From: a bacterium
Lineage (GTDB): Bacteria > Hydrothermota > UBA3073 > JACQXS01 > JAUWAR01
Direction of reading: 5' to 3'
Length of the DNA: 31,840 nt
NCBI GenBank assembly: GCA_030601965.1
Contig: JAUWAR010000001.1
Span: 1-31,840, forward strand
Shown here piece by piece: positions 14,823-31,296 of the stretch. The translations under genes were made by a program, and so were the position numbers. Positions within the stretch are counted from its first letter, which is position 1. Each line of letters starts with the position of its first letter. Below the pieces are notes generated by a model. That model was not told the DNA's origin. It was given only the letters and a program-made list of their open reading frames with translations, and ran no database searches.

Positions 14823-15563
14823 TCACTTTTTTCTCTTACCTTTTATTTTTCCTCTTACTATGACTTTTTCTGTCTCTCCATTCCGGATGTAAATATCCAC
14901 TATCTTCCCATAGAGAGTATCTATTTTTGTCACAACACATACATTCCCAGAAAGAGTAGCATTTTCCTTGTCTGTAAAATAGTTAATAGTATCAGAATAT
15001 GCAGTTATATCACCTTGCTTGAGATAGGCGTTATTCATAATAACCATATATTTCTTCTTGGGATTATACAAACCCTTGTCTCCTCTTACAACTAAATCCT
15101 GTTCCTTCTTTTTATATTCAACATTTCCATTGAATGTAACATCTTTGCCTTTCAGATATTCACTACTTTCTGCAACTATTATGTCTGTCCCCTGTTGTGC
15201 CATAATTCCATTACGAAAATTACCCTTTTCTTCATTAAACCAGTATTCTCCATCTTTACCAAGAATAAGAAGCGAATCTTCTTGCACTATGATTGTATCA
15301 TAAAGCGTTGCTTTATTCTCGGTAATAACAGCCCTAAAAGTTTCAATAATAAGATTGTGTTGCGTGAACTTGACATTTCCAATAAAATGCGTAGTAGAGC
15401 CTTTTAGAATAGTAGAATCTGCCCAGACCTGATACTCTGAAATTCCAAAGCCCAAATCCCAAATTCCAAATAAAGCCCAAATCCCAAATGCCAAATAAGA
15501 TTTAAAATTTCCTAATGTTTGGATTTTGGATTTTGGATTTTGGATTTTATCTCCCGTATCCAT
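14823..15563 (-). CDS. lptA: LptA/OstA-like periplasmic LPS transport protein
   Basis: Repeated beta-jellyroll motifs (F.GNV, ..ADTI.Y, L.GNV); lies between lptC and lptB; start ATG 15563 overlaps the lptC end. Confidence 0.75.
   Translation of the reverse strand: MDTGDKIQNPKSKIQTLGNFKSYLAFGIWALFGIWDLGFGISEYQVWADSTILKGSTTHFIGNVKFTQHNLIIETFRAVITENKATLYDTIIVQEDSLLILGKDGEYWFNEEKGNFRNGIMAQQGTDIIVAESSEYLKGKDVTFNGNVEYKKKEQDLVVRGDKGLYNPKKKYMVIMNNAYLKQGDITAYSDTINYFTDKENATLSGNVCVVTKIDTLYGKIVDIYIRNGETEKVIVRGKIKGKRKK
15440..15548. repeat. Inverted pair of heptamer arrays encoding the LptA-like N-terminus
   Basis: (GGATTTT)4 perfect at 15521-15548; AAA(T/G)(T/C/G)CC units at 15440-15496. Confidence 0.9.
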
Positions 15564-16065
15564 AAGTATCTCTAATTTTAATACAGGTAAGGTCTGGATT
15601 GCTTTCAAGACCCTTGCCTATGATAGTCTTATCCTGTTCTGTAATTTTTATCTCTTTGTCTGTTCTGATTTTGCTCTCTTTATTCAGCCATTCCAGTTCA
15701 CTTGTTTCAAGGTTTTTCCCTTCCTTAGTAACCACTTTCACATCTCCGAAAGCCTTCATATTGTCAGTCTCCCCAAAGTATATTCCGCTATCTGCCGTAA
15801 GAGTAGAGTAAATCTTTTTATTTCTATAGAAATCAAGTCTAATAGTATAGACAATTATTCTATCTTCATAAGAGACTGCCTTTTCTGCATTTAGTTCCCA
15901 ATCTCGGGCACCTTTTGTTGTTGCTGTAAGACTGAATCCAACCGCCTCTTCTTTGATATTACTGTCTGGAATAAGAGATTTGTTTTCTCTGTCTCCACAT
16001 CCAGCAAGAAGTAGGAAGTAGGAAGTGAGAAGTAGGAAGTAAGATTTGTATTGATTTGTGTTCAC
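15547..16065 (-). CDS. lptC: LPS export protein LptC, with lipobox (LLAG-C)
   Basis: WELNAEKA, TLTADSG, AFGDVKVV, LETSELEW, IIGKGLESN; first gene of lptCAB. GTG 16065 chosen from promoter geometry (track uses 16080). Confidence 0.85.
   Translation of the reverse strand: MNTNQYKSYFLLLTSYFLLLAGCGDRENKSLIPDSNIKEEAVGFSLTATTKGARDWELNAEKAVSYEDRIIVYTIRLDFYRNKKIYSTLTADSGIYFGETDNMKAFGDVKVVTKEGKNLETSELEWLNKESKIRTDKEIKITEQDKTIIGKGLESNPDLTCIKIRDTYGYGR
16007..16041. repeat. (A/G)GAAGT(A/G) x5 heptamer array encoding the LptC signal h-region
   Basis: AGAAGTA GGAAGTA GGAAGTG AGAAGTA GGAAGTA; the minus strand reads YFLLLTSYFLLL. Confidence 0.9.
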
Positions 16066-16071
16066 AGTTAT

Positions 16072-16137
16072 ATAATACACCCATTTTTATAAAAAGTCAA
16101 TAAAAATCTTGACACTAACAGTAAAAAAATATATAGA
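16072..16137. promoter_or_regulatory. Back-to-back sigma70-type promoters for lptC and the OM beta-barrel gene
   Basis: Minus strand: TTGACT 16100-16095, 17 nt, TATTAT 16077-16072. Plus strand: TTGACA 16109-16114, 17 nt, TATAGA 16132-16137. Confidence 0.6.
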
Positions 16138-16147
16138 GAGAGATTAT

Positions 16148-16765
16148 ATGAGATTACTTCCTCTTTTATTATTAGTGCCACACATAGTTATAGGTGGATT
16201 TAAATACTCTGTAGGAATTGGTGCAGGGAATTATAATCCCTCTTTAGAGAGCCTTAATAACTATCTCCAATCCTATGAAGGAAAGACTATCAATCCAAGT
16301 ATTTTGTTCCAGGGAGATATCCGGGCTCATATTATAAATATCTCCTGTGGATTGGGTATCGGATATTTCAAGGGCAAAGCCCCTGGCGCGCCTTCTTCAC
16401 TAAGCACTATTCCAATATCTATTGATATGGGGTATAAAATGACAGCACTTCCAGCACTTCTTTTCTTCTATCCAGGTATTGGTTATGAATTTGTCTTTAC
16501 AAAATATGAAGATAATAGTTTAGTAGCAAGCACCTGGGCAAAAAGAATATTCCCATCTTTAACTACAATCTTTACAGTTTTGGAAAATACAGATGCGGAA
16601 TTATGTATAAGATATAAATTTGCACACGCAAATAAACTAAAAATTGATAAAGCCAAAATTTCAGCATTTACCGAAGGCGATTATTTCAAAGGTTATACTG
16701 ATACTCCTCTTCCTATTGAACTTGATGGATTTTATATAGGGGTAGGTATAAGGTACTACCCATAA
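16148..16765 (+). CDS. Outer-membrane beta-barrel protein (small OmpA/OmpW-like barrel)
   Basis: Signal peptide MRLLPLLLLVPHIVIG, alternating aromatic/Gly strands, terminal strand FYIGVGIRYYP. Confidence 0.7.
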   Translation: MRLLPLLLLVPHIVIGGFKYSVGIGAGNYNPSLESLNNYLQSYEGKTINPSILFQGDIRAHIINISCGLGIGYFKGKAPGAPSSLSTIPISIDMGYKMTALPALLFFYPGIGYEFVFTKYEDNSLVASTWAKRIFPSLTTIFTVLENTDAELCIRYKFAHANKLKIDKAKISAFTEGDYFKGYTDTPLPIELDGFYIGVGIRYYP

Positions 16766-16769
16766 AAAT

Positions 16770-16922
16770 ATGTGGCAGTGTTGGGCTATATTTTATACAA
16801 GCCTCTGGATAGCTGCTTCAGGCTATTTCTTTGGTGGCGATATTAAACTGTCTAATATTATATTTGGACTTGCATTGGCAGTTCTCTCCTTCTGGGCGGG
16901 AATCAAGGCAAGAAGGAGGTAG
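16770..16922 (+). CDS. 50-aa two-helix membrane protein, absent from the ORF track
   Basis: MWQCWAIFYTSLWIAASGYFFGGDIKLSNIIFGLALAVLSFWAGIKARRR; ATG 4 nt after the upstream stop; basic C-terminus. Confidence 0.65.
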   Translation: MWQCWAIFYTSLWIAASGYFFGGDIKLSNIIFGLALAVLSFWAGIKARRR

Positions 16923-16974
16923 GGCAAGGCTTTAGCCTTGCGTTTATAGAAGCAAACCTAAAGGTTTGCCCTAC
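16919..16974. repeat. GTAG-type REP doublet
   Basis: GTAGGGCAAGGC-TTTA-GCCTTGC paired with GCAAACC-TAAA-GGTTTGCCCTAC. Confidence 0.85.
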
Positions 16975-17001
16975 AATCTCCCTTAAGATACCAACTAATT
17001 A

Positions 17002-17628
17002 ATGGATAGTTTTATAAGGATTATCATCTCAATTATTGTTCTGTTCTTTTCTATTATCATTCATGAGGTATCACATGGATATATGGCACTTGTAAGGGGA
17101 GACCCTACAGCAAGAGATGCTGGAAGACTTACCTTAAATCCTATTCCACATATTGATATATTCGGTACTATTATCTTGCCATTACTACTCATAATTATGC
17201 GGTCATCTATACTTTTTGCATGGGCAAAACCTGTACCTATCAACCCTTATAACTTCCAGAATTCTAAAAAGGACACAATGCTTGTGGGTGCAGCAGGACC
17301 CCTCAGTAATATAGGACTTGCAATAGTATTTGCCATTCTTTTTAGAGTATTTGGTGCAACTTTTGTAGGACAGTTCCTCTTATTTGGTGTTGCAATAAAT
17401 CTTATACTTGCTTTCTTTAACCTCGTTCCCATCCCTCCTCTTGATGGCTCAAGAATCCTTCAGGGTTTTTTATCTTATGAAGCAGCCCAGAAATATATGG
17501 TTATAGAGAGATTTGGATTTATTATTATCTATTTTCTACTCTTTGCTGGACTTTTTCAGCATATACTCCTTCCAATAGTCTCTTTTTTCCTCAGGCTCTT
17601 AACAGGTATAGGTTTTGGAGGATTGTGA
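17002..17628 (+). CDS. Site-2 protease family (M50) intramembrane metalloprotease
   Basis: HEVSH zinc motif, GDPTA..GRLTLNP..HID, AAGPLSN, NLVPIPPLDG. Confidence 0.95.
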   Translation: MDSFIRIIISIIVLFFSIIIHEVSHGYMALVRGDPTARDAGRLTLNPIPHIDIFGTIILPLLLIIMRSSILFAWAKPVPINPYNFQNSKKDTMLVGAAGPLSNIGLAIVFAILFRVFGATFVGQFLLFGVAINLILAFFNLVPIPPLDGSRILQGFLSYEAAQKYMVIERFGFIIIYFLLFAGLFQHILLPIVSFFLRLLTGIGFGGL

Positions 17629-18638
17629 CTTCTACTAAATACTTCCTAATTTTTACTTCCTACTTCTTACTTCTTACTTCCTACTTCTTAGGTTGTGCCA
17701 AAAAGGCCCCTCCACCCTCACCGGATAGATGGGCACCTAAACTTACAAAGGTTAATGCAATAGATAATACCCATATTAGACTCTACTTTACCGAAAGACT
17801 TGATGAAAATTCTGTAAAAAATATAGCGAATTATTCAATTCGGGACTGGAAAGTCCCTCCTACAATACTGGAGGTCTACTCATCAGCATTAAAGAACCAG
17901 GATATCTTTCTTGCTGTTGCAAAGATGGAACCAATAGAATACACTATTATAGTAAAAGGGGTAAAAGATATTTCTTTAAATCTTATGAAAGAGACACAAA
18001 AGAGATTTACAGGCTCCATTATTCCTGATACAACAGCCCCTGTTATCCTTTTAAAACCTCCAGCAATTTTGACGAATGTAAAGCAGGATACTTTTTTTAC
18101 TGTGAAATTTTCTGAACCCATTAAGAAGTTTGAATCTCTTATCCTTCCCACTTCCCACTTCTCACTTCCCACTTCTTATTTATCCTGGGACTCATCTTAT
18201 ACAAGTCTGACTATAAGTCCTAAAATTCTTGATACAAGTTTATTTTATAGTTTTTATGCCAGGGCTTACGATGCTGATTCTAATAGTGTCTTTTTTACCT
18301 TTTCTTTTACTGGAAAAGAAAAACTGCCAGAACTCATTATAGAAGGAGAAACAGAAAAGTCTGCACTAATCTTGGTTTTTAAGGATAAAATTCCTATAAA
18401 AGTAGCCGTATCAGACATACAGGGAGTCTATTCTTTAAAGCATCTTGATAAAGGAGATTATATTCTCAAAGTCTTTAAAGATAGCAATATCTTTGAGCAA
18501 AGCATAGAATTAATAGTAAGCAGGCAGGATGTAGATATTTTTTCTCCTGGTTCTATAGATTCAACTTTCATTCCACTATTAGAGACTATCCAAATAATTT
18601 TTCCTTCCGAATCTCGTCTTTATTACCATAAAAAATAA
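17625..18638 (+). CDS. Lipoprotein with bacterial Ig-like (Big_5-type) domains
   Basis: Lipobox FLG-C, Pro-rich linker CAKKAPPPSPD..AP, L.FTE.LD, GVKD..N, DTTAP, V.FSEPI; GTG overlaps the upstream TGA. Confidence 0.75.
   Translation: MTSTKYFLIFTSYFLLLTSYFLGCAKKAPPPSPDRWAPKLTKVNAIDNTHIRLYFTERLDENSVKNIANYSIRDWKVPPTILEVYSSALKNQDIFLAVAKMEPIEYTIIVKGVKDISLNLMKETQKRFTGSIIPDTTAPVILLKPPAILTNVKQDTFFTVKFSEPIKKFESLILPTSHFSLPTSYLSWDSSYTSLTISPKILDTSLFYSFYARAYDADSNSVFFTFSFTGKEKLPELIIEGETEKSALILVFKDKIPIKVAVSDIQGVYSLKHLDKGDYILKVFKDSNIFEQSIELIVSRQDVDIFSPGSIDSTFIPLLETIQIIFPSESRLYYHKK
17640..17688. repeat. TACTTC(C/T) heptamer array (7 units, one degenerate) encoding the lipoprotein h-region
   Basis: Same unit as the lptC array; reads YFLIFTSYFLLLTSYF. 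Confidence 0.9.
18144..18178. repeat. CTTC(C/T)(C/T)A x5 heptamer array, in frame in the lipoprotein
   Basis: CTTCCCA CTTCCCA CTTCTCA CTTCCCA CTTCTTA; reads LPTSHFSLPTSY. Confidence 0.85.
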
Positions 18639-19212
18639 TATTCCCCTTTTGCAATATTCCAATATTTGTGCATAAAGGATAAAGAGAAGTGTTTTTGCAG
18701 GAAAATAAGAGGAATATTTTTGACTTTTGCCCAAGTCTTTTAAGGAAAGGAACTACTTTTTTCTCGTTTTCTTTATCAATCGCCCGCAGAGGTTCATCAA
18801 TAATTAGAAGTTCCGGGTCATAAGATAAAGAGGCAAGAGATAACATCTTCTTTTCACTGAAAGATAGGTTCTGGCAGGGCATTTCTTTATCAAATCCAAA
18901 GTAAGATATAACTCTATCTATTCTCTCAGGAGGTAGTTCATATTTTTTAATTCCAAAACTTATTTCATCCTGCACTTTATCAAGAAACAGTCCCTCTTGG
19001 GGTATTTCAAAAGATATACCTGTTACAGGTGATGACTCATTTTCTATTGTTATTCTTCCTTTTTCTGGTTTAAGAAGTCCTGCAATCAAAAGTGCAAGCG
19101 TAGTTTTACCAAAACTATTATCTCCAAAGAATCCTGTGATTCCTTGCTCAATGGTAATGCTTAAATTCTTTATTATAGAGCCGAATGAAAGATTTTCAAT
19201 TAGTATTTTCAT
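18586..19212 (-). CDS. ABC ATPase (EcfA/CbiO-like) with degenerate motifs
   Basis: Walker A GDNSFGKTT, F..P..GLF...V.DEISFG, signature LSFSE, Walker B LIIDEP, no H-loop His. Confidence 0.75.
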   Translation of the reverse strand: MKILIENLSFGSIIKNLSITIEQGITGFFGDNSFGKTTLALLIAGLLKPEKGRITIENESSPVTGISFEIPQEGLFLDKVQDEISFGIKKYELPPERIDRVISYFGFDKEMPCQNLSFSEKKMLSLASLSYDPELLIIDEPLRAIDKENEKKVVPFLKRLGQKSKIFLLFSCKNTSLYPLCTNIGILQKGNIIFYGNKDEIRKEKLFG

Positions 19213-19247
19213 TTAATTGAGGGACTTGTAAGACTCCACCAATAATG

Positions 19248-19302
19248 GTAGTCGCAGGCTTCAGCCTGCGATATTATAACGCAACCTAAAGGTTGCGGCT
19301 AC
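19248..19302. repeat. GTAG-type REP doublet (second copy)
   Basis: GTAGTCGCAGGC-TTCA-GCCTGCG paired with CGCAACC-TAAA-GGTTGCGGCTAC. Confidence 0.85.
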
Positions 19303-20149
19303 CCTCTTTTAGTGGTAATTCTTTAATTTCTTCAAGATACTGCTCTTGTTTATTCTTATTTTTCCTATTTGCAGATTTTATTGCAGATTGGATGCCTCCA
19401 AAATAGAACCTGTTTAATCCTAAAGAGCCAATAAGAAGAGCACTCTTGTAATCCATGTTTTTTATATTTAGAACAGTAAGATACCCTGAAAGTCCAGTAA
19501 GTAGGAAGGACATAATCCCTGTTTTAATCTTTCCTGTGTATATATGTCCTGCCCCTGGGATGATTGCAGAAAGTATGCCTGCCTTTCTTGGTGAATAAAC
19601 TGGAAGGTTTTCTCCTTTTCTTGCAAATTCTACAAGTTTTGCATCATCTGTCTTTTCAAATTCAGAACCTGCTTGCCCCCATCTTTTTTCAAGAAGATAG
19701 GTTATGCCCATTAAATATGCCTTTTGTTCTTTATTTTGTAAATCTATTAGTTCTATTCTTGCCAGACTATATTCACCAAGTGCTATATAATTCTTTGCCA
19801 GAGAAAGGGAAATCCTTTCCATTAACTCCTGGTCATTATAATATTTTAACCCAAGTTCTTTCAGGTATTCTGTTGCATTTCTTATATCTCCATTTTTTTC
19901 ATAAGATTCTGCAATCTTAAACTTAATAGTTTCAGACTCGGGATGAAAAAATAGTTCCCTTCTATACTCGGTAATTGCATTATAATAATCTCCTTTATCA
20001 AACAAATAATCACCAAAAGAAGCAAAAAGAGGATAGCAAGTAGTAAGTAGCAAGTAGCAAGTAGTAAGTAGTAAAAAACCTTTATTTGCTGGTGTTCTGG
20101 TATTCTGGTGTGCTAAAGTTGCCTTCGGCAAATCTAGTGCTCTATTCAT
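19286..20149 (-). CDS. Exported TPR protein with C-terminal Gly-rich hydrophobic hairpin (TM2/DUF5683-like)
   Basis: FGDYLFDKGDYYNAITEYRR TPR, SPRKAGILSAIIPGAGHIYTG motif; start 20149 or 20155. Confidence 0.8.
   Translation of the reverse strand: MNRALDLPKATLAHQNTRTPANKGFLLLTTCYLLLTTCYPLFASFGDYLFDKGDYYNAITEYRRELFFHPESETIKFKIAESYEKNGDIRNATEYLKELGLKYYNDQELMERISLSLAKNYIALGEYSLARIELIDLQNKEQKAYLMGITYLLEKRWGQAGSEFEKTDDAKLVEFARKGENLPVYSPRKAGILSAIIPGAGHIYTGKIKTGIMSFLLTGLSGYLTVLNIKNMDYKSALLIGSLGLNRFYFGGIQSAIKSANRKNKNKQEQYLEEIKELPLKEGSRNL
20034..20134. repeat. Element mosaic at the TPR gene 5' end: TAG(C/T)AAG-type x6 (20034-20075), octamer x3 (20087-20110), TTGCC-TTC-GGCAA hairpin
   Basis: Read directly; encodes LPKA, HQNTRTPA and LLLTTCYLLLTTCY. 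Confidence 0.8.
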
Positions 20150-20759
20150 CAGCATTTAGCCTTTCATTGAGATGTTTTTCTCTGCTATGTTTATTAAAGA
20201 GTTTTGCTGAAATTACAGAGCCATAAATGTCACCCACATAAAGCAGAAGACTAAATATACCAAGTCCATAAGCAGGAAGTTCTTTATCTTCTTCATAATA
20301 ACTATATGCAAGTGATGAAGAACCAACTATTAGAATAAAGGAGAACAATCCATCTCCAAGTCTTCCAGAATACGCCCTTCCACTTCCGGGGATAACAGCA
20401 GAAAGGATACCGGCTACAACAGGATTTTTATATGGGATTCCTTTGCCGTTTGTTTTACCAATCTCAAAAATCGCATTTGTTTTTCTGAATATCTCCATAG
20501 CCTGTTCATATTTACCTGATTTTTGATAACAAAGCCCAATCTTAAACTCTATATCGTTCTTTTTGGGACAAGTGGGGGAGAGATATAAAAATCTTTGATA
20601 TTCAGTAATAGCTCTATCATAATCTTTTTGTTCATACAAAAAATCTGCAAAGGAGAGAACTTTGTCAGGGTTAAGGATTTGTGAAAGATTATCTGGATAG
20701 GTTATGGATGCAAGAAACAAGAAGGCAAGAAAGATATGGTTTCTATTCCACCGGGTCAT
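20142..20759 (-). CDS. Exported TPR protein with C-terminal Gly-rich hydrophobic hairpin, paralogue of 19286..20149
   Basis: FADFLYEQKDYDRAITEYQR TPR, KNPVVAGILSAVIPGSGRAYSG; N-terminal hydrophobic stretch. Confidence 0.8.
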   Translation of the reverse strand: MTRWNRNHIFLAFLFLASITYPDNLSQILNPDKVLSFADFLYEQKDYDRAITEYQRFLYLSPTCPKKNDIEFKIGLCYQKSGKYEQAMEIFRKTNAIFEIGKTNGKGIPYKNPVVAGILSAVIPGSGRAYSGRLGDGLFSFILIVGSSSLAYSYYEEDKELPAYGLGIFSLLLYVGDIYGSVISAKLFNKHSREKHLNERLNADE

Positions 20760-22755: not shown

Positions 22756-24390
22756 TTAAAATCTGGAAATCCCAATCTTCCTTACTACAAGTTCTATAAT
22801 AAGTAATCCTAATACAAATAAAAGCAAAAATCTCTTCAAATGTAATCGCGACCAGGAGGTCGCTCCTACACTAATAACAGGAGAAAAGAAATTCTTACTT
22901 ATATTTACTGAAAACCCTTTCACATTTTCAAGTCTATAATTACCCATAATCTCTGGGGTGATATAGACATATAATCCAGTCTGTGTTTGTTTTGGAAATA
23001 GAGTAGTAACCCCTTGTGGAGTTACACACTTATAAGGTCTAAATTGGACAACCTTGAACCTTGCCTGGTCCCCGACAAGGAAATTTTGTTTCTCTTTCTC
23101 CTTTCCAGCTAAATAATAAACAGTGTTATAAATAAAAGGCACAAATAGAGGAGAGAGCACAAAATCACCTCCCTCTTTTATTAATGAAAAAAGAAAGTAT
23201 ATCACCCCGCAATCTTGCGGGGTGCCACCAGATTTTTCTACTATCGCTGGAGTGCCATCAGAAAAATATGCAATAACTTTTCCTGTGATAGTGGTATCAG
23301 CAGGAATGAATTTGATTTGTTTAATATCCTCTTTATTTAAACCCCAGAATACTGGATGTGAAAAATCTATCCTTGAGAGATTAAGAAAAGAGAGATGTGA
23401 GATGTGAGATGTGAGATGTGGGTAACAGATAAGACTTCCTTTATCTGGTTGGAAACTTGGGTATTCCATAAATATCATTACATCAAAATTGGGTTTAGGG
23501 GTCTCAGATATTTTAACCTCAACAGGTGTAGAAACCTCAGGTGGTGAGAGTGCGTTCTTCACATAAAATGTAGCAGATTCCTCACCAACAATAAGAATCT
23601 TTAGAGGTTCCTGCTCGGGATATGTAAAATATCTCCTGTTATCAATCTCAAAATCATCTCTGCCTCTTATCTCTATAAAACCAGAACTTCCAGTGAAGGT
23701 TTTATTTAGAGGAAATATTACAGTAGAAACTGATAAAGGTTGTATCTGTGCCCTTTTTCCAAACAGGTTCTCTCCCATAGATAGTTCAGCGATTATCTCC
23801 TTTTCTATTTTAGAGAAGTTTCTTATTACTGCACAGACTTTAGGATTATCAGAAAGAGGGTTAAGAATAAATAAACTATCTATTCCAAGACTATTTTTTG
23901 AAGACTCAATTTCTATTTTCTTGATGCCCTGTTTTACAGGCTTGTCTTTTTCTGTAATAACGCAACTTCTTTCTGGTAAATCAAGAAGAGAGAACTTTTT
24001 ATAAACCCATCTTGCATCTTTATTTAGTTCTTCTCCGGAAGTGAGGATACAAAATGCCCCTTTTCTTTGTAATTTTAATGCAATCTCCTTACCTTTTTCA
24101 AAAACTGGGTGCATAGTATATGAATTATCAAGTATAACAAGTCTTGCTTTCCTTCTTATTACAGGATTTGCAAATGCAAAAACAAGTAATAGGATAGCAA
24201 GTGTCCTTATAATAAGAAGAATTATATCCTTAAGTTTTAGAAATCCTCTTTCTCCTTTCTCTGCTTTTCGTAATAGTTGTATTGATGGGAAAAATTTCTT
24301 TTGCATTCTTGTTCTTGCCACAAGATGTATAATAAAAGGAATAGGAACAGCGAAAAGTCCAAAGAGAAACAAAGGATTTAGAAATGCCAT
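22756..24390 (-). CDS. BatA-domain membrane protein with reduced vWA-like region
   Basis: MAFLNPLFLFGL..VPIP.IIHL, FPSIQLL, LLI.R.L....L..AFA.P, ILDNSYTM, DDFEIDN.RY, C-terminal TM ending LIIEL. Confidence 0.85.
   Translation of the reverse strand: MAFLNPLFLFGLFAVPIPFIIHLVARTRMQKKFFPSIQLLRKAEKGERGFLKLKDIILLIIRTLAILLLVFAFANPVIRRKARLVILDNSYTMHPVFEKGKEIALKLQRKGAFCILTSGEELNKDARWVYKKFSLLDLPERSCVITEKDKPVKQGIKKIEIESSKNSLGIDSLFILNPLSDNPKVCAVIRNFSKIEKEIIAELSMGENLFGKRAQIQPLSVSTVIFPLNKTFTGSSGFIEIRGRDDFEIDNRRYFTYPEQEPLKILIVGEESATFYVKNALSPPEVSTPVEVKISETPKPNFDVMIFMEYPSFQPDKGSLICYPHLTSHISHLSFLNLSRIDFSHPVFWGLNKEDIKQIKFIPADTTITGKVIAYFSDGTPAIVEKSGGTPQDCGVIYFLFSLIKEGGDFVLSPLFVPFIYNTVYYLAGKEKEKQNFLVGDQARFKVVQFRPYKCVTPQGVTTLFPKQTQTGLYVYITPEIMGNYRLENVKGFSVNISKNFFSPVISVGATSWSRLHLKRFLLLFVLGLLIIELVVRKIGISRF
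22848..22869 (-). repeat. Single GTAG-type REP in frame in the BatA-like gene
   Basis: Minus strand GTAGGAGCGACC-TCCT-GGTCGC; encodes VGATSWS. Confidence 0.75.
23203..23224. repeat. 22-nt hairpin CACCCCGCAA-TC-TTGCGGGGTG in frame in the BatA-like gene
   Basis: 10-bp perfect stem; encodes TPQDCGV. Confidence 0.8.
23392..23419. repeat. Perfect (GAGATGT)4 in frame in the BatA-like gene
   Basis: Minus strand reads TSHISHL-type peptide. Confidence 0.9.
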
Positions 24391-25370: not shown

Positions 25371-26996
25371 TATTTGTGCATACTTTTTGCGGATAAGATA
25401 TGACTGGATATTTGAGAACATATTATAGACACACCAATATAACACTATTCCAGCAGGAAATCTCAGGAATATAACAGTCATAAATATTGGCATGAAATAC
25501 ATCATCATTTTCTGTTGTTGGTTTTGAGTATTGGCTGTACCTTGCAGCTTAGTCTGGAGGAACATCATACCACCCATCAGTAAAGGCAAGATATAATAGG
25601 GGTCTCTATAAGAGAGGTCATCAATCCAGTGAGGAACAAAGGTCGCCCCCCTCATGGCTATAGTAGTTTGAAGTATCGCATAGAGTGCAAAGAATACAGG
25701 CATCTGGAAAATCATTGGAAGACAACCGCCCACTGGATTCACCTTATGTTTTTTATAAATCTCCATCGTCTCCTTATTTAATCTCTGTGGGTCTTTTTTG
25801 TATTTCTGTCGCAGAGCCTGGATTTTAGGTTGAATTCTCTGCATATCCATCATAGATTTATGCTGGGTTTTGGTAAAAGGATAAAACACAACCGTCATAA
25901 GTAAAGAGAAAACTATTATCACCAATCCAAAATTTGGTATAAATTTATGTAAGCCTAGGAAAATTTTAAGGACAAATCGTGATATAGGTCTTATCCATTT
26001 AAATCCAAAATAGCAGGCATTTTCCAGACCAGTCCCCATCTTCTTCATTTTATCATAATCAAGAGGCCCTGTATAGATTTTGAAACAAAATTCATCTCTT
26101 GCCCTTGTTGTAAGGGATATTCCAATCCTCATTGAACTCGGGTCTTTAGGTGTAGGAGGTGCCATAGCACACATACAGCCTGCACCTCCACCAATTCTCT
26201 CTTTGCCAAATCTTTTAATTGAATACTCTATAGTTTCTATTTTTTGTGGTATAATTGCGGCAAGGAAATATTTATTTTTTATCCCAACCCAGTTTATATT
26301 ACCAGGACTTATGAACTCTGTTGTATCAAGTGAATTTACATTCTTGAAAAGGGGTTCGGGATTCTCTCCAGTAGATGCAACCCCTGCAAAATACCTCAAC
26401 TCTTCTGCGACATCCCTTTCTGTAGCATTTAACCCGGAGTTTACTAAAATCTTATACTTCTCCACATCTTCAACTTTTAAGGATAAATCTGCCATATAAC
26501 TTGTATCGTTAAAAGTATATTCCTTCTTTAATAATCTTTTCTCAATATTTAATCCATAGACTATATAATTTTTATCTCTCTTTAGTATCTGGAACACATT
26601 ATCTTTCAAGTCAACAGATGTTCCGTTCATAATAAGCATATCTGTAAATGCTTTTTGTCCTTCAGGTATGAGTTCAACATCTCTCTTCTCCTGATCTTTA
26701 TATTTTTTAAGTTGAATACTCTTGATAGATGCCCCTTTTGATGTAAGAATCACCCTCATAAGAGGGGTCTCAATTGTATCAAGAACAGATGTCAGATCTA
26801 ATGTCTCAGGCATAAGAGTCTTGCCTGCCCGGCCGAGGACTTCTGTCCTCTCTCTTCTCTTTTCTCTCTCCTCTGTTCTAATTTCTGGTTCCCGACCTGG
26901 AACTGGTTCCTTAGGAGCTCTGGAGACCATAAGCCAGTTCCAGAATATAAGAATCAAAAAGATTAAAATTATGGCTAAAAAACTTCGCTTTTCCAT
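25362..26996 (-). CDS. yidC: Membrane protein insertase YidC
   Basis: N-terminal TM, periplasmic domain (GASIKSIQLKKY, WVGIKNKYF), NFGLVII, SMMDMQRIQPKI..L..KYK, VNPVGGCLP..QMPVF.ALY, DPYYILP, GIVLYW. Confidence 0.96.
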   Translation of the reverse strand: MEKRSFLAIILIFLILIFWNWLMVSRAPKEPVPGREPEIRTEEREKRRERTEVLGRAGKTLMPETLDLTSVLDTIETPLMRVILTSKGASIKSIQLKKYKDQEKRDVELIPEGQKAFTDMLIMNGTSVDLKDNVFQILKRDKNYIVYGLNIEKRLLKKEYTFNDTSYMADLSLKVEDVEKYKILVNSGLNATERDVAEELRYFAGVASTGENPEPLFKNVNSLDTTEFISPGNINWVGIKNKYFLAAIIPQKIETIEYSIKRFGKERIGGGAGCMCAMAPPTPKDPSSMRIGISLTTRARDEFCFKIYTGPLDYDKMKKMGTGLENACYFGFKWIRPISRFVLKIFLGLHKFIPNFGLVIIVFSLLMTVVFYPFTKTQHKSMMDMQRIQPKIQALRQKYKKDPQRLNKETMEIYKKHKVNPVGGCLPMIFQMPVFFALYAILQTTIAMRGATFVPHWIDDLSYRDPYYILPLLMGGMMFLQTKLQGTANTQNQQQKMMMYFMPIFMTVIFLRFPAGIVLYWCVYNMFSNIQSYLIRKKYAQIGS

Positions 26997-29124: not shown

Positions 29125-31296
29125 ATGAAACTTGTAATTGTAGAATCACCTCCAAAAGCCCGCACCATTCAGAAATTTCTATCTTCAGAGTATATGGTAC
29201 TCTCCTCAAAAGGGCATATAAGAGATTTACCTCCACGGGAATTCGGAGTAGATATCAAAAATGGGTTTAAACCAACTTATAAAATTCTAAAGGATAAACA
29301 AAAAGTTGTTAAAGGACTTAAGGAAAAATCAAAAGATGCCAATCTAATCATACTTGCTACAGACCCAGACAGAGAAGGAGAAGCAATAGCCTATCATATT
29401 TTATATGTGATTGGAAAACCTGCAAAGAGGGCTCTACTTTATGAAATAACAAAAGAAGCTGTGAACGATGCTATAAGAAATCCAGAGGAACTAAATATGG
29501 CAAAAGTAGATGCTCAACAGGCACGAAGAATACTTGATAGACTTGTTGGATATGAGGTGAGCCCTTTACTCTGGAGTGTTTTCAAGCAACGAAACCTCTC
29601 TGCAGGTAGAGTTCAATCTGTTGCTCTAAGGCTTGTATGTGAAAGAGAAAAAGAGATAAGAGAATTTGTTCCAGAAGAATACTGGGAAATAAACTGTAGA
29701 TTAAATCTCAAATCTCAAATCTCAAATCTCAAATCCTTTATTGTTGCAAAACTAATAAAAATAGACGAAGAAAAAGCAAAGATAACGAACGAAAAAGAGG
29801 CAACCAAAATCGAGTCTGAACTTAAAAATGAGGAATTTATAGTAGAGAATTTCAAAAAAGAGGAGAAGAAAAAAATGCCTTCTCCTCCATATATCACAAG
29901 TACTCTCCAGCAAGATGCATCTATCAGACTACGGTTTTCTACCAAAAAGACTATGCAAATCGCCCAGCAACTCTTTGAGGAAGGTTATATCACTTATATG
30001 CGAACGGATTCTGTAAGGATTGCCCCAAAGGCATTAGATAATATAAGGAAATATATAAATAAAATACTTGGCAGGGAATATCTACCAGATAAACCTCATT
30101 TTTACAAAGAAAAGAAGACAGCCCAGGCTGCACACGAGGCAATAAGACCCACATCTGTAGAAAAGGTTCCCGACAAAATCAAACAAGACCTTACACCTGA
30201 CCAGTTCAGAATCTATTCTCTTATATGGAGAAGAACCCTTGCCTCTCAGATTTCATCTGCACTAATAGAAATAAGAAACTTAGATATAAAAGCCGGTAAG
30301 TTCCTTTTAAGGGCGAGTGGCAAAAAGACTATATTTTCGGGATTTATGGCTATTTATAAAATAGAGCAAGAAAAAACTTCAGAGGTAATCACCTCTCAGG
30401 AGATTCCAGAGATTGAGAAGGGCACCTTCTTGAATCTACTTGAAGTTATAAAAGACCAGCACTTCACAAAGCCCAGGCTAAGATATACGGAAGGCACGAT
30501 GGTAAAGGAACTTGAGGCAAATGGAATAGGAAGACCATCAACCTATGCCCCGACAATATCAAGGATAATAGAAAAAGAATATGTCACAAAGGAAAACGGC
30601 AAACTATTAGCCACTGACCTTGGAGAAGCAATCAATACTGTCCTTGTTGCTCGTTTTCCTGATATTTTCAATGTTGATTTCACAAGAGAGATGGAGGAGA
30701 ATCTTGACAAGATAGAATTGGAAAAACTCAACTGGAAAATGCTATTACATAATTTCTATGGGCCATTTAAAAAAGATGTAATTAAATTTCAGGAAGAGCG
30801 AGAGGAGGTAAAGACACTTATGGAAGAGAAAAGCAATGAAATATGCGAAAAATGTGGAAAACCAATGGTAATAAAATTAGGAAAGTATGGTAAGTTTCTT
30901 GCCTGTACAGGTTTTCCAGAGTGCAAAAATACAAGACCTGTGGATTCAGATGTAAAGACTGCACCAGAAAAAACGGGTGAGACCTGTCCAAAATGTGGTA
31001 GTCCACTTGTCGTAAAAAAAGGAAGATATGGTCAGTTTATTGGGTGTTCAAACTATCCAAAATGTAATTTCATAAAACCAAAATCAATTGGTATAAAGTG
31101 TCCTGAGTGTGGGAGTGAACTTGTTGAGAAGAAAACAAAGAAGGGGAAAATTTTTTATGGATGCAGTAACTATCCAGAGTGTAAATTTGCGATATGGGAC
31201 AAGCCTATAAGTAAAAAGTGTTCTTCTTGTGGTAATCCATTTATGGTAGAGAAAAAGGGTACACTTGTATGTCCCAAGTGTGGTTCAACTCCATAA
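29125..31296 (+). CDS. topA: DNA topoisomerase I (type IA) with C-terminal zinc ribbons
   Basis: VESP.K..TI, SKGHIRDL, ATDPDREGE, SAGRVQS, YITYMRTDS (catalytic Tyr), AHEAIRP, GIGRPSTYA, repeated C..C...GC..YP.C ribbons. Confidence 0.98.
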   Translation: MKLVIVESPPKARTIQKFLSSEYMVLSSKGHIRDLPPREFGVDIKNGFKPTYKILKDKQKVVKGLKEKSKDANLIILATDPDREGEAIAYHILYVIGKPAKRALLYEITKEAVNDAIRNPEELNMAKVDAQQARRILDRLVGYEVSPLLWSVFKQRNLSAGRVQSVALRLVCEREKEIREFVPEEYWEINCRLNLKSQISNLKSFIVAKLIKIDEEKAKITNEKEATKIESELKNEEFIVENFKKEEKKKMPSPPYITSTLQQDASIRLRFSTKKTMQIAQQLFEEGYITYMRTDSVRIAPKALDNIRKYINKILGREYLPDKPHFYKEKKTAQAAHEAIRPTSVEKVPDKIKQDLTPDQFRIYSLIWRRTLASQISSALIEIRNLDIKAGKFLLRASGKKTIFSGFMAIYKIEQEKTSEVITSQEIPEIEKGTFLNLLEVIKDQHFTKPRLRYTEGTMVKELEANGIGRPSTYAPTISRIIEKEYVTKENGKLLATDLGEAINTVLVARFPDIFNVDFTREMEENLDKIELEKLNWKMLLHNFYGPFKKDVIKFQEEREEVKTLMEEKSNEICEKCGKPMVIKLGKYGKFLACTGFPECKNTRPVDSDVKTAPEKTGETCPKCGSPLVVKKGRYGQFIGCSNYPKCNFIKPKSIGIKCPECGSELVEKKTKKGKIFYGCSNYPECKFAIWDKPISKKCSSCGNPFMVEKKGTLVCPKCGSTP
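29703..29736 (+). repeat. Perfect (AAATCTC)4 plus AAATCC in frame in topA
   Basis: Encodes NLKSQISNLKS. Confidence 0.9.

Follow-up and report, generated by a model that had tools for sequence, protein, structure and literature searches.

Heptanucleotide repeat arrays encode predicted signal-peptide cores of envelope proteins, LptC and an LptA-like protein included, in a bacterial genome with a general load of heptamer repeats

The opa genes of Neisseria carry a coding repeat of the pentamer CTCTT in their leader-peptide sequence (PMC3745409). Heptanucleotide simple sequence repeats (SSRs) are over-represented in Xanthomonas, with the unit GGGAATC, and in Nostoc, with GGGGA(C/T)T (PMC4692102), and TAACTGA repeats have been described in Beggiatoaceae, cyanobacteria and Bacteroidetes (PMC4679880). 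A general bacterial excess of heptamers was reported in 2007, as cited in PMC4692102 and PMC4679880; according to these two papers the excess is known but without explanation, and the described cases are mainly intergenic. Rickettsia palindromic elements (RPEs) and other MITEs (miniature inverted-repeat transposable elements) are inserted in frame in protein genes (reviewed in PMC10969869). Here we analyze a 31.8-kb stretch of bacterial DNA (contig JAUWAR010000001.1, below called the window) in which tandem arrays of 7-nt units encode the hydrophobic cores (h-regions) of four predicted signal peptides, those of an LptA-like protein, a lipoprotein form of LptC, an Ig-like lipoprotein and a tetratricopeptide repeat (TPR)/DUF5683 envelope protein. 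The window is one contig (C142) of a 1.22-Mb metagenome-assembled genome (MAG; G000) of 157 contigs, with a GC content of 37% and a completeness of 84%, whose closest named relative by TopA is a MAG of Candidatus Stahlbacteria (WOR-3). Sequence comparison indicates that repeat DNA of one narrow unit family encodes, and has replaced, signal-peptide cores in this genome, essential Lpt genes included. Such arrays are one face of a general heptamer invasion of coding and non-coding DNA and not a dedicated export device. In the literature on heptamer repeats and signal peptides we found no description of such a link.

The arrays were detected at period 7 with Tandem Repeats Finder (TRF), which yields ~15 heptamer arrays in the window besides the main four. 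In the LptA-like gene (14823–15608, minus strand; Pfam PF03968, LptD_N/LptA; likely start ATG at 15563), a degenerate array of ~8 copies of the coding-strand unit TTTGGGA (15440–15496, minus strand) is read as LAFGIWALFGIWDLGFGI, and a second array of 4.4 copies of coding-strand AAAATCC (15518–15548, minus strand) supplies the n-region, read as the basic KIQNPKSKIQ; the N-terminus runs in frame as ...KIQNPKSKIQTLGNFKSY-LAFGIWALFGIWDLGFGI-SEYQVWADSTIL. In lptC (15547–16080, minus strand; Pfam PF06835; start GTG at 16080 or GTG at 16065), 4.9 copies of the CTACTTC/CTTACTT family (16008–16041, minus strand) are read as YFLLLTSYFLL and adjoin the lipobox LAGC, giving ...NTNQYKS-YFLLLTSYFLLL-AGC. 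The h-region of the Ig-like lipoprotein (gene 17625–18638, plus strand; Pfam Big_5) is encoded by 6.9 copies of TACTTCC/T (17640–17687, plus strand), which adjoin LGC and yield the N-terminus MTSTK-YFLIFTSYFLLLTSYF-LGC-AKK, and that of the TPR protein (gene 19286–20155, minus strand; Pfam TPR/DUF5683) by 5.4 copies of CTTGCTA/CTTACTA (20034–20071, minus strand), giving ...ANKGF-LLLTTCYLLLTTCY-PLFASF. The units of the LptC, Ig-like and TPR arrays form one family, CTTACTN, TACTTCT being a rotation of CTTACTT. A previous reading of the window made from the sequence only (below, the sequence-only reading) had placed four period-7 arrays in these N-terminal h-regions and had pointed out the TACTTC(C/T) unit common to the LptC and Ig-like genes; TRF and in-frame translation bear out both statements. 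It overlooked the n-region array at 15518–15548 and the membership of the LptC, Ig-like and TPR units in a single family. Its arithmetic is also right: three 7-nt units make seven codons and visit all frames. Because 7 is coprime with 3, translation of an array passes through all three frames, and each unit yields a single cyclic heptapeptide on each strand; genome-wide, arrays of one unit do enter in different phases. The frame independence that it proposed holds within an array, but the downstream frame is still shifted whenever one unit is gained or lost.

For a control of the periodicity, each array peptide was re-encoded 20000 times with the genome's own codon usage. The 7-nt self-identity of the four arrays is 0.72–0.89, compared to means of 0.41–0.53 after re-encoding, and the observed values were matched by only 0 to 17 of the 20000 synonymous resamplings. 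The periodicity therefore belongs to the DNA itself, does not simply follow from codons rich in Leu and Phe, and is stronger than in synonymously shuffled codons, as the sequence-only reading required. Logan contigs from two SRA runs (SRR14872663 and SRR34846495) are 100% identical to the window over the LptA, Ig-like and TPR arrays, the Ig-like array being spanned without change by one contig (L191) and the TPR array by another (L193). As the contigs of the two runs are independent, these three arrays are not assembly artefacts. Independent Logan unitigs (L077, L191 and L192) stop exactly at heptamer arrays, at window positions 15546, 16006/16008 and 17629, which suggests that such arrays are one cause of the fragmentation of the MAG.

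We compared the four leaders with those of orthologues. The lptC and lptA-like genes have rpoN and lptB as neighbours, the usual operon. LptC orthologues from the same order are themselves lipoproteins and bear short leaders of the ordinary kind, for example MKYLLILIPIFIFGC-K, MKFFPLLFFLIIFGC-K and MIRYFNILILLLLTAGC-K; their Cys (GC-K) aligns with the Cys directly after the array here. In one relative (G007) the LptC leader holds a different heptamer array at the same place, CTGTCTA ×4, read as CLLSTVYCLL; a congener of that genome (G001) has an LptC leader without an array. LptA orthologues have short ordinary signals that end just before a conserved ADS(S/T)IL (ADSSIL). Orthologues of the Ig-like lipoprotein read MKTKIFYLFLFLLIFGC-AKKGPPTSPD and similar, with C-AKKxPPxSPD conserved and the mature start AKK.PP.SPD thus kept, and those of the TPR protein have ordinary N-terminal hydrophobic leaders ahead of FADxLF. 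Since conserved lipobox Cys residues or mature N-termini directly follow the arrays, the true starts do not lie downstream of them. In the alignments the arrays occupy the h-region exactly, and the leaders are ~5–7 residues longer than those of the orthologues. In all four genes, the arrays thus appear to have replaced or lengthened the h-regions of signals that already existed. The proposal of the sequence-only reading that arrays replaced signal peptides even in Lpt genes accordingly gains support from orthologue signals that end at the same Cys or mature start; its other proposal, that arrays created export signals, finds none, because every orthologue examined already has a signal. An exact-sequence cluster look-up returned the four proteins as singletons from this MAG alone, no sequence above 64% identity turned up in a metagenome scan for which LptB was the seed, and none of the 33 LptC N-termini in the LptB-seeded metagenome loci has a 7- or 8-nt array.

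Signals of the signal peptidase II (SPII) type were judged by a positive n-region, an uncharged h-region and a lipobox [LVI][ASTVI][GAS]C ~15–35 residues from the start. By these sequence criteria, the LptC and Ig-like leaders are predicted SPII lipoprotein signal peptides. LptC, as MNTNQYKS-YFLLLTSYFLLL-AGC, matches the PROSITE PS51257-type lipoprotein pattern, and the Ig-like leader, MTSTK-YFLIFTSYFLLLTSYF-LGC, has the lipobox-like FLGC. The LptA-like and TPR leaders are candidate Sec signals of the signal peptidase I (SPI) type, for which an n-h-c architecture should end in a small-residue cleavage site ahead of the conserved mature start. The LptA-like leader combines a K-rich n-region with an 18-residue h-region that contains one Asp, and has VWA ahead of the conserved DSTIL. 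In the TPR leader the h-region is followed by LFA-SF, and its orthologues have N-terminal signals.

The four arrays belong to a much larger set. Exact tandem repeats of at least three copies number 121 in the genome for period 7, compared to 1, 4, 7 and 5 for periods 5, 6, 8 and 9, respectively. At a TRF score of at least 40, there are 328 heptamer arrays, versus 0 in an order-3 Markov simulated genome, and 93 octamer arrays, again versus 0 in the control; unlike the heptamers, the octamer arrays are mostly (58/93) intergenic or partial. The heptamer arrays, typically of four to five units and with a modal length of 31–36 nt, divide into 240 genic, 53 intergenic and 35 partial, 73% lying in open reading frames (ORFs). 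Among genic arrays, 71/218 begin in the first 40 codons, versus 12% expected, and a mean Kyte–Doolittle (KD) hydropathy above 1 is found for 49% of N-terminal arrays versus 6% of internal ones. Approximately 38 of the 328 make up hydrophobic stretches at N-termini; among the 40 PROSITE-type lipobox signals, the h-region is array-built in 14. Dozens of array leaders can be listed across the genome, for example CLLLTAYCLL-VTGC, YFLLLTSYFLLL-SGC and LLLTTYCLLLTT-GC, and in several a second, K-rich array serves as the n-region (KSEIRNPKSE, RIEKRELRI, QNAKRKTQ, and KIQNPKSKIQ in LptA). At least seven signals pair a K-rich with a hydrophobic array, and two of these, in LptA and on contig C108, are inverted pairs. 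The idea of a repeat family for export signals thus stands insofar as arrays are translated at h-regions throughout the genome and come from a narrow, recurring family. A dedicated export system is not supported, because only ~38/328 arrays are N-terminal and hydrophobic and most are hydrophilic inserts or intergenic. On another contig of G000 (C23:6605-6652), a K-rich array and then a long hydrophobic array resemble a signal, but an in-frame stop separates them; this could be a decayed or switched-off leader.

The repertoire of units is restricted. The genome uses 99 canonical units compared to ~269 expected, and the top unit occurs with a multiplicity of 20 compared to ~4 expected. Where both strands of a unit contain stops, as in AACTAAT, its arrays are mostly intergenic or supply stop codons. 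The unit AAAACTC is read as KLKTQNS in 18/18 genic arrays, because its complement holds a stop. For hydrophobic readings the choice is wide, as 149 oriented heptamer necklaces give a stop-free, uncharged, hydrophobic heptapeptide. Single-linkage clustering of the units chained nearly all of them together and was uninformative. The flanks of 14 CTTACTN-family arrays have nothing in common save lipobox codons, with no defined ends and no target-site duplications; there is thus no sign of a cassette with defined ends.

Arrays also lie within cytoplasmic proteins. At least 58 clean arrays deep inside genes are read as hydrophilic heptapeptide repeats such as KLKTQNS, KSQISNL, QNSEFRI and NPKSEIR, and their hosts include TopA, AlaRS, two class I aminoacyl-tRNA synthetases (aaRS), PurL, SMC, PheT and a Mur ligase. 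Alignment with orthologues covered six array sites in AlaRS, aaRS, PurL and Mur, and each of them (6/6) falls in a loop that tolerates indels. At the homologous position in an orthologue, one-unit-like copies are present in the PurL (CTCAAATC) and an aaRS (AAATCCTGA) of G001, which hints, on alignment, that the arrays grew in place. In PurL, arrays of two different units lie in the loop that follows the SEHCxHKT motif, CAGAATT in G000 (L156) and AAAATCA in G013 (L171), the other relatives having none; from these sequences the surface loop appears to have been hit independently more than once. In the window, topoisomerase I contains 4.7 copies of AAATCTC (29703–29735, plus strand), read as NLKSQISNLK and forming a 7-residue insert relative to a Stahlbacteria orthologue. 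Further arrays follow the first transmembrane segment of YidC (26840–26879, minus strand; read as RTEEREKRRERTE) and lie inside a BatA-domain protein (23392–23420, minus strand; 4.1 copies, HLTSHISHL) and, as a second array, inside the Ig-like lipoprotein (18144–18175, plus strand; 4.6 copies of CTTCCCA, LPTSHFSLPT). Elsewhere in G000, in-frame heptamer arrays at C150:8833-8907 and C132:9370-9404, one of them an inverted pair, fall in apparent type IX secretion system (T9SS) C-terminal sorting domains (NPF...IYDLSGRL).

Neighbouring arrays tend to be inverted copies. Among 457 arrays there are 97 neighbouring pairs no more than 150 nt apart, and 20/97 are inverted copies within one mismatch versus 4.4% of random pairs, an approximately five-fold excess; direct copies are not enriched among the 97. 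One near-inverted pair (inverted distance 1) is formed by the two LptA arrays, at 15518–15548, which overlaps the lptC stop, and 15440–15496, with the purine-rich arm as n-region and the pyrimidine-rich arm as h-region. A second leader built in the same way is that on C108; other inverted pairs, those of the CTTACTG family included, lie between co-oriented genes or in T9SS C-terminal domains. For the LptA 5′ region, RNA folding gives a long hairpin (−40.2 kcal/mol, z −3.9). Within 15430–15565 (minus strand), this two-array hairpin takes in the stop of lptC, the start of lptA and the entire LptA signal; it could couple or throttle lptA translation. At a larger distance, the LptC (16008–16041) and Ig-like (17640–17687) arrays, 1.6 kb from each other, carry one unit in inverted orientation and have two genes between them, an unannotated 218-aa ORF and an M50 peptidase, an arrangement that recalls the layout of a gene between inverted arms. 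Recombination between these two arrays would exchange the 5′ parts of both leaders.

CTTACTG arrays occur in 17/272 WOR-3 genomes from several families, again in N-terminal leaders of non-orthologous genes. Array density in the sampled genomes ranges from 0 (G001, G012, G026) to 43 (G011) per 100 kb, is 27 here, and varies within a genus. One candidate association emerged with PF05635, the family of the 23S rRNA intervening sequence (IVS) protein and the diversity-generating retroelement (DGR) protein Avd (PMC10053308). Genes of this family are multi-copy in many WOR-3 relatives, with up to 16 copies. In 10/10 loci examined (L181–L190, from G004, G005, G007, G009, G017, G020, G021, G022, G030 and G031), 7- or 8-nt arrays, mostly heptamers, lie within ~100 nt of the gene; 8 of the loci have them on both sides, and the copies are often inverted. 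The sampled genomes without PF05635 (n = 2) have no arrays. We know of no paper on PF05635 genes bracketed by inverted heptamer arms. In this 84%-complete genome, PF05635 was found neither with the Pfam model nor with a hidden Markov model that was built from the relatives' proteins and run over the six-frame translation, and G001 has a PF05635 gene but no arrays in 76 kb. The association is only a lead.

Our preferred explanation, which we consider probable, is that lineage-specific, genome-wide heptamer repeat families have been sorted by selection on their coding potential, the four arrays of the window being local examples. A limited set of heptanucleotide families would expand, arrays would arise or land throughout the genome, genes included, and selection would sort the unit families by the heptapeptide that they encode. 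Units with stops on both strands would stay intergenic. A-rich units, with K/Q/S/N-rich readings, would persist in surface loops of soluble proteins and in signal-peptide n-regions, and the CTTACTN family (LLLTAYC, YFLLLTS, LLLTTYY, LLLTTCY) would persist where a loose hydrophobic stretch suffices, chiefly in Sec/lipoprotein h-regions. When an array replaced or lengthened an h-region, the charge of the n-region, the Cys of the lipobox or the site of signal peptidase, and the mature part would all have been kept, and the array leaders are predicted to work in export. This explanation builds on what was observed: the arrays and the frame in which they are read, where they lie relative to conserved mature N-termini, the statistics for the whole genome and the narrow set of units. 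We infer the origin of the arrays by slippage, which may have started from local one-unit seeds, and the role of selection as the sorting force.

Several observations weigh against sorting by coding potential as a full account. CTTACTN, within one mismatch, takes 29/38 N-terminal hydrophobic arrays versus ~13% expected, and in ordinary hydrophobic coding DNA a single-copy CTTACTG is a rare 7-mer, with a share of 0.3% (rank 107/149). This excess and this rarity together rule out hydrophobic filtering alone as what sets unit choice. Hydrophobic filtering with random local seeding is likewise insufficient, and therefore some heptamers must expand preferentially or be copied between loci; a unit-specific mechanism or copying between loci is needed, and both are candidate processes. 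Tolerance alone is also not an obvious predictor of the higher share of array-built signals among lipobox signals (35%) than among genes with any N-terminal hydrophobic segment (28/325). Relative to orthologues, the insert sizes are 0, +5, +7, +9 and +9 residues, a further insert, in AlaRS, being ambiguous, and do not suit plain three-unit slippage; the gene calls come from a crude ORF-based model of our own that takes the longest ORF. We also considered coding arrays as net three-unit (7-residue) slippage inserts, an idea that fits TopA and, roughly, the LptC and Ig-like leaders and fails at the sites with 0, +5, +9 and +9 and with the ambiguous AlaRS insert.

The recurrence of one unit family in leaders is what a portable, frame-independent h-/n-region cassette would produce, if recombination or a mobile inverted-array element copied it between genes and its supply of export signals were the reason for its retention. 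The CTTACTN share of h-region arrays despite the rarity of the 7-mer, the use of the same unit for signal peptides of non-orthologous genes in other WOR-3 families, the signals that combine K-rich and hydrophobic arrays and the array-built 35% of lipobox signals all fit such a cassette. We nevertheless regard it as unlikely, given that same-unit arrays lack conserved ends, target duplications and common flanks, that the orthologues all had signals already, that the majority of arrays lie outside signals and that the CTTACTN family is also seen as non-coding intergenic inverted pairs. A stronger form, in which a dedicated machinery, possibly tied to the PF05635 cassettes of relatives, makes or spreads the arrays, the inverted pair is a two-sided module that offers on either strand a purine-rich arm as basic n-region and a pyrimidine-rich arm as h-region, and cells repeatedly recruit, and perhaps exchange or switch, export signals, is distinctly unlikely in our judgment. 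If instead the nucleic acid were primary, inverted-pair hairpins would act as terminators, in control of mRNA stability or translation, or as protein-binding sites, and signal coding would be incidental. The inverted excess among adjacent arrays (20/97), the stable fold of the LptA 5′ region, the many inverted pairs between co-oriented genes and the array-bracketed PF05635 genes of relatives would follow from this, but the LptC, Ig-like and TPR arrays are single, with no inverted partner within 150 nt, and genic arrays are mostly solitary (97 adjacent pairs among 457), which makes it very unlikely.

The arrays could also be contingency loci, at which strand slippage would switch individual envelope genes between on and off states, in the manner of CTCTT in Neisseria opa. 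A unit not divisible by three does lie in the 5′ coding regions of envelope proteins here. However, arrays are not confined to dispensable genes, being present in lptC, lptA, topA, yidC, alaS, class I aaRS genes, purL and smc, and in lptC, lptA, topA, yidC and the aaRS genes, which are essential, off states would be lethal. The tracts are moreover short (four to seven units), contigs of SRR14872663 and SRR34846495, which hide minority alleles and could mask low-level slippage, are identical over the arrays, and 36 further CTTACTN-family arrays yielded no frame-shifted lipoprotein gene, the C23 locus being ambiguous. We give this possibility little credence, as little as a primary role of the nucleic acid. 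An artefact of annotation or assembly, with true starts downstream of the arrays or with misassembled arrays, is extremely improbable. Longest-ORF gene calls can extend into upstream arrays and Logan contigs tend to end at arrays, but the conserved lipobox Cys and mature N-termini directly after the arrays place the h-region upstream of them, and the arrays are reproduced base for base in independent runs.

This genome amounts to a natural experiment on the minimal sequence needs of signal peptides: in approximately one third of lipoprotein leaders, and in the leaders of essential Lpt proteins, slippage or copying of DNA has repeated a peptide of 7 residues. Proteins have also taken up simple-repeat DNA wholesale, aminoacyl-tRNA synthetases and topoisomerase I included, and the narrow repertoire points to a sequence-specific process behind the long-noted heptamer excess in bacteria. 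In practice, heptamer arrays break short-read assemblies and can mislead the annotation of start codons and signal peptides in MAGs.

The window can now be set beside the described systems. The array-flanked PF05635 loci of WOR-3 relatives likewise have 7- or 8-nt arrays, often in inverted orientation, but this 84%-complete genome yielded no homologue of PF05635. RPEs, as defined elements, measure ~100–150 bp. With these and other MITEs the arrays have in common that housekeeping proteins accept, in frame and at permissive sites, repeat DNA with inverted symmetry; RPEs have a conserved sequence, whereas here there are simple 7-nt arrays of many units and without conserved ends. The likeness to the CTCTT repeat of Neisseria opa lies in a unit that is not a multiple of three, situated inside a signal-peptide coding region and giving a hydrophobic reading in any phase. 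Unlike in opa, the unit here is of 7 nt, the arrays comprise four to seven units, dozens of unrelated genes are affected, essential ones included, with a genome-wide load, and no length variation was seen in the contigs of the two runs, in which minority alleles are hidden. Closest are the known heptanucleotide SSRs (GGGAATC, TAACTGA and the cyanobacterial STRR repeats), which also have 7-nt units in arrays of approximately four to five, hundreds per genome and a patchy distribution. Those repeats have one dominant unit and are mainly intergenic, being under-represented in ORFs in PMC4692102. In the genome described here, by contrast, there are ~99 units, 73% of the arrays lie in ORFs and are translated, and one family of them forms predicted signal-peptide cores.

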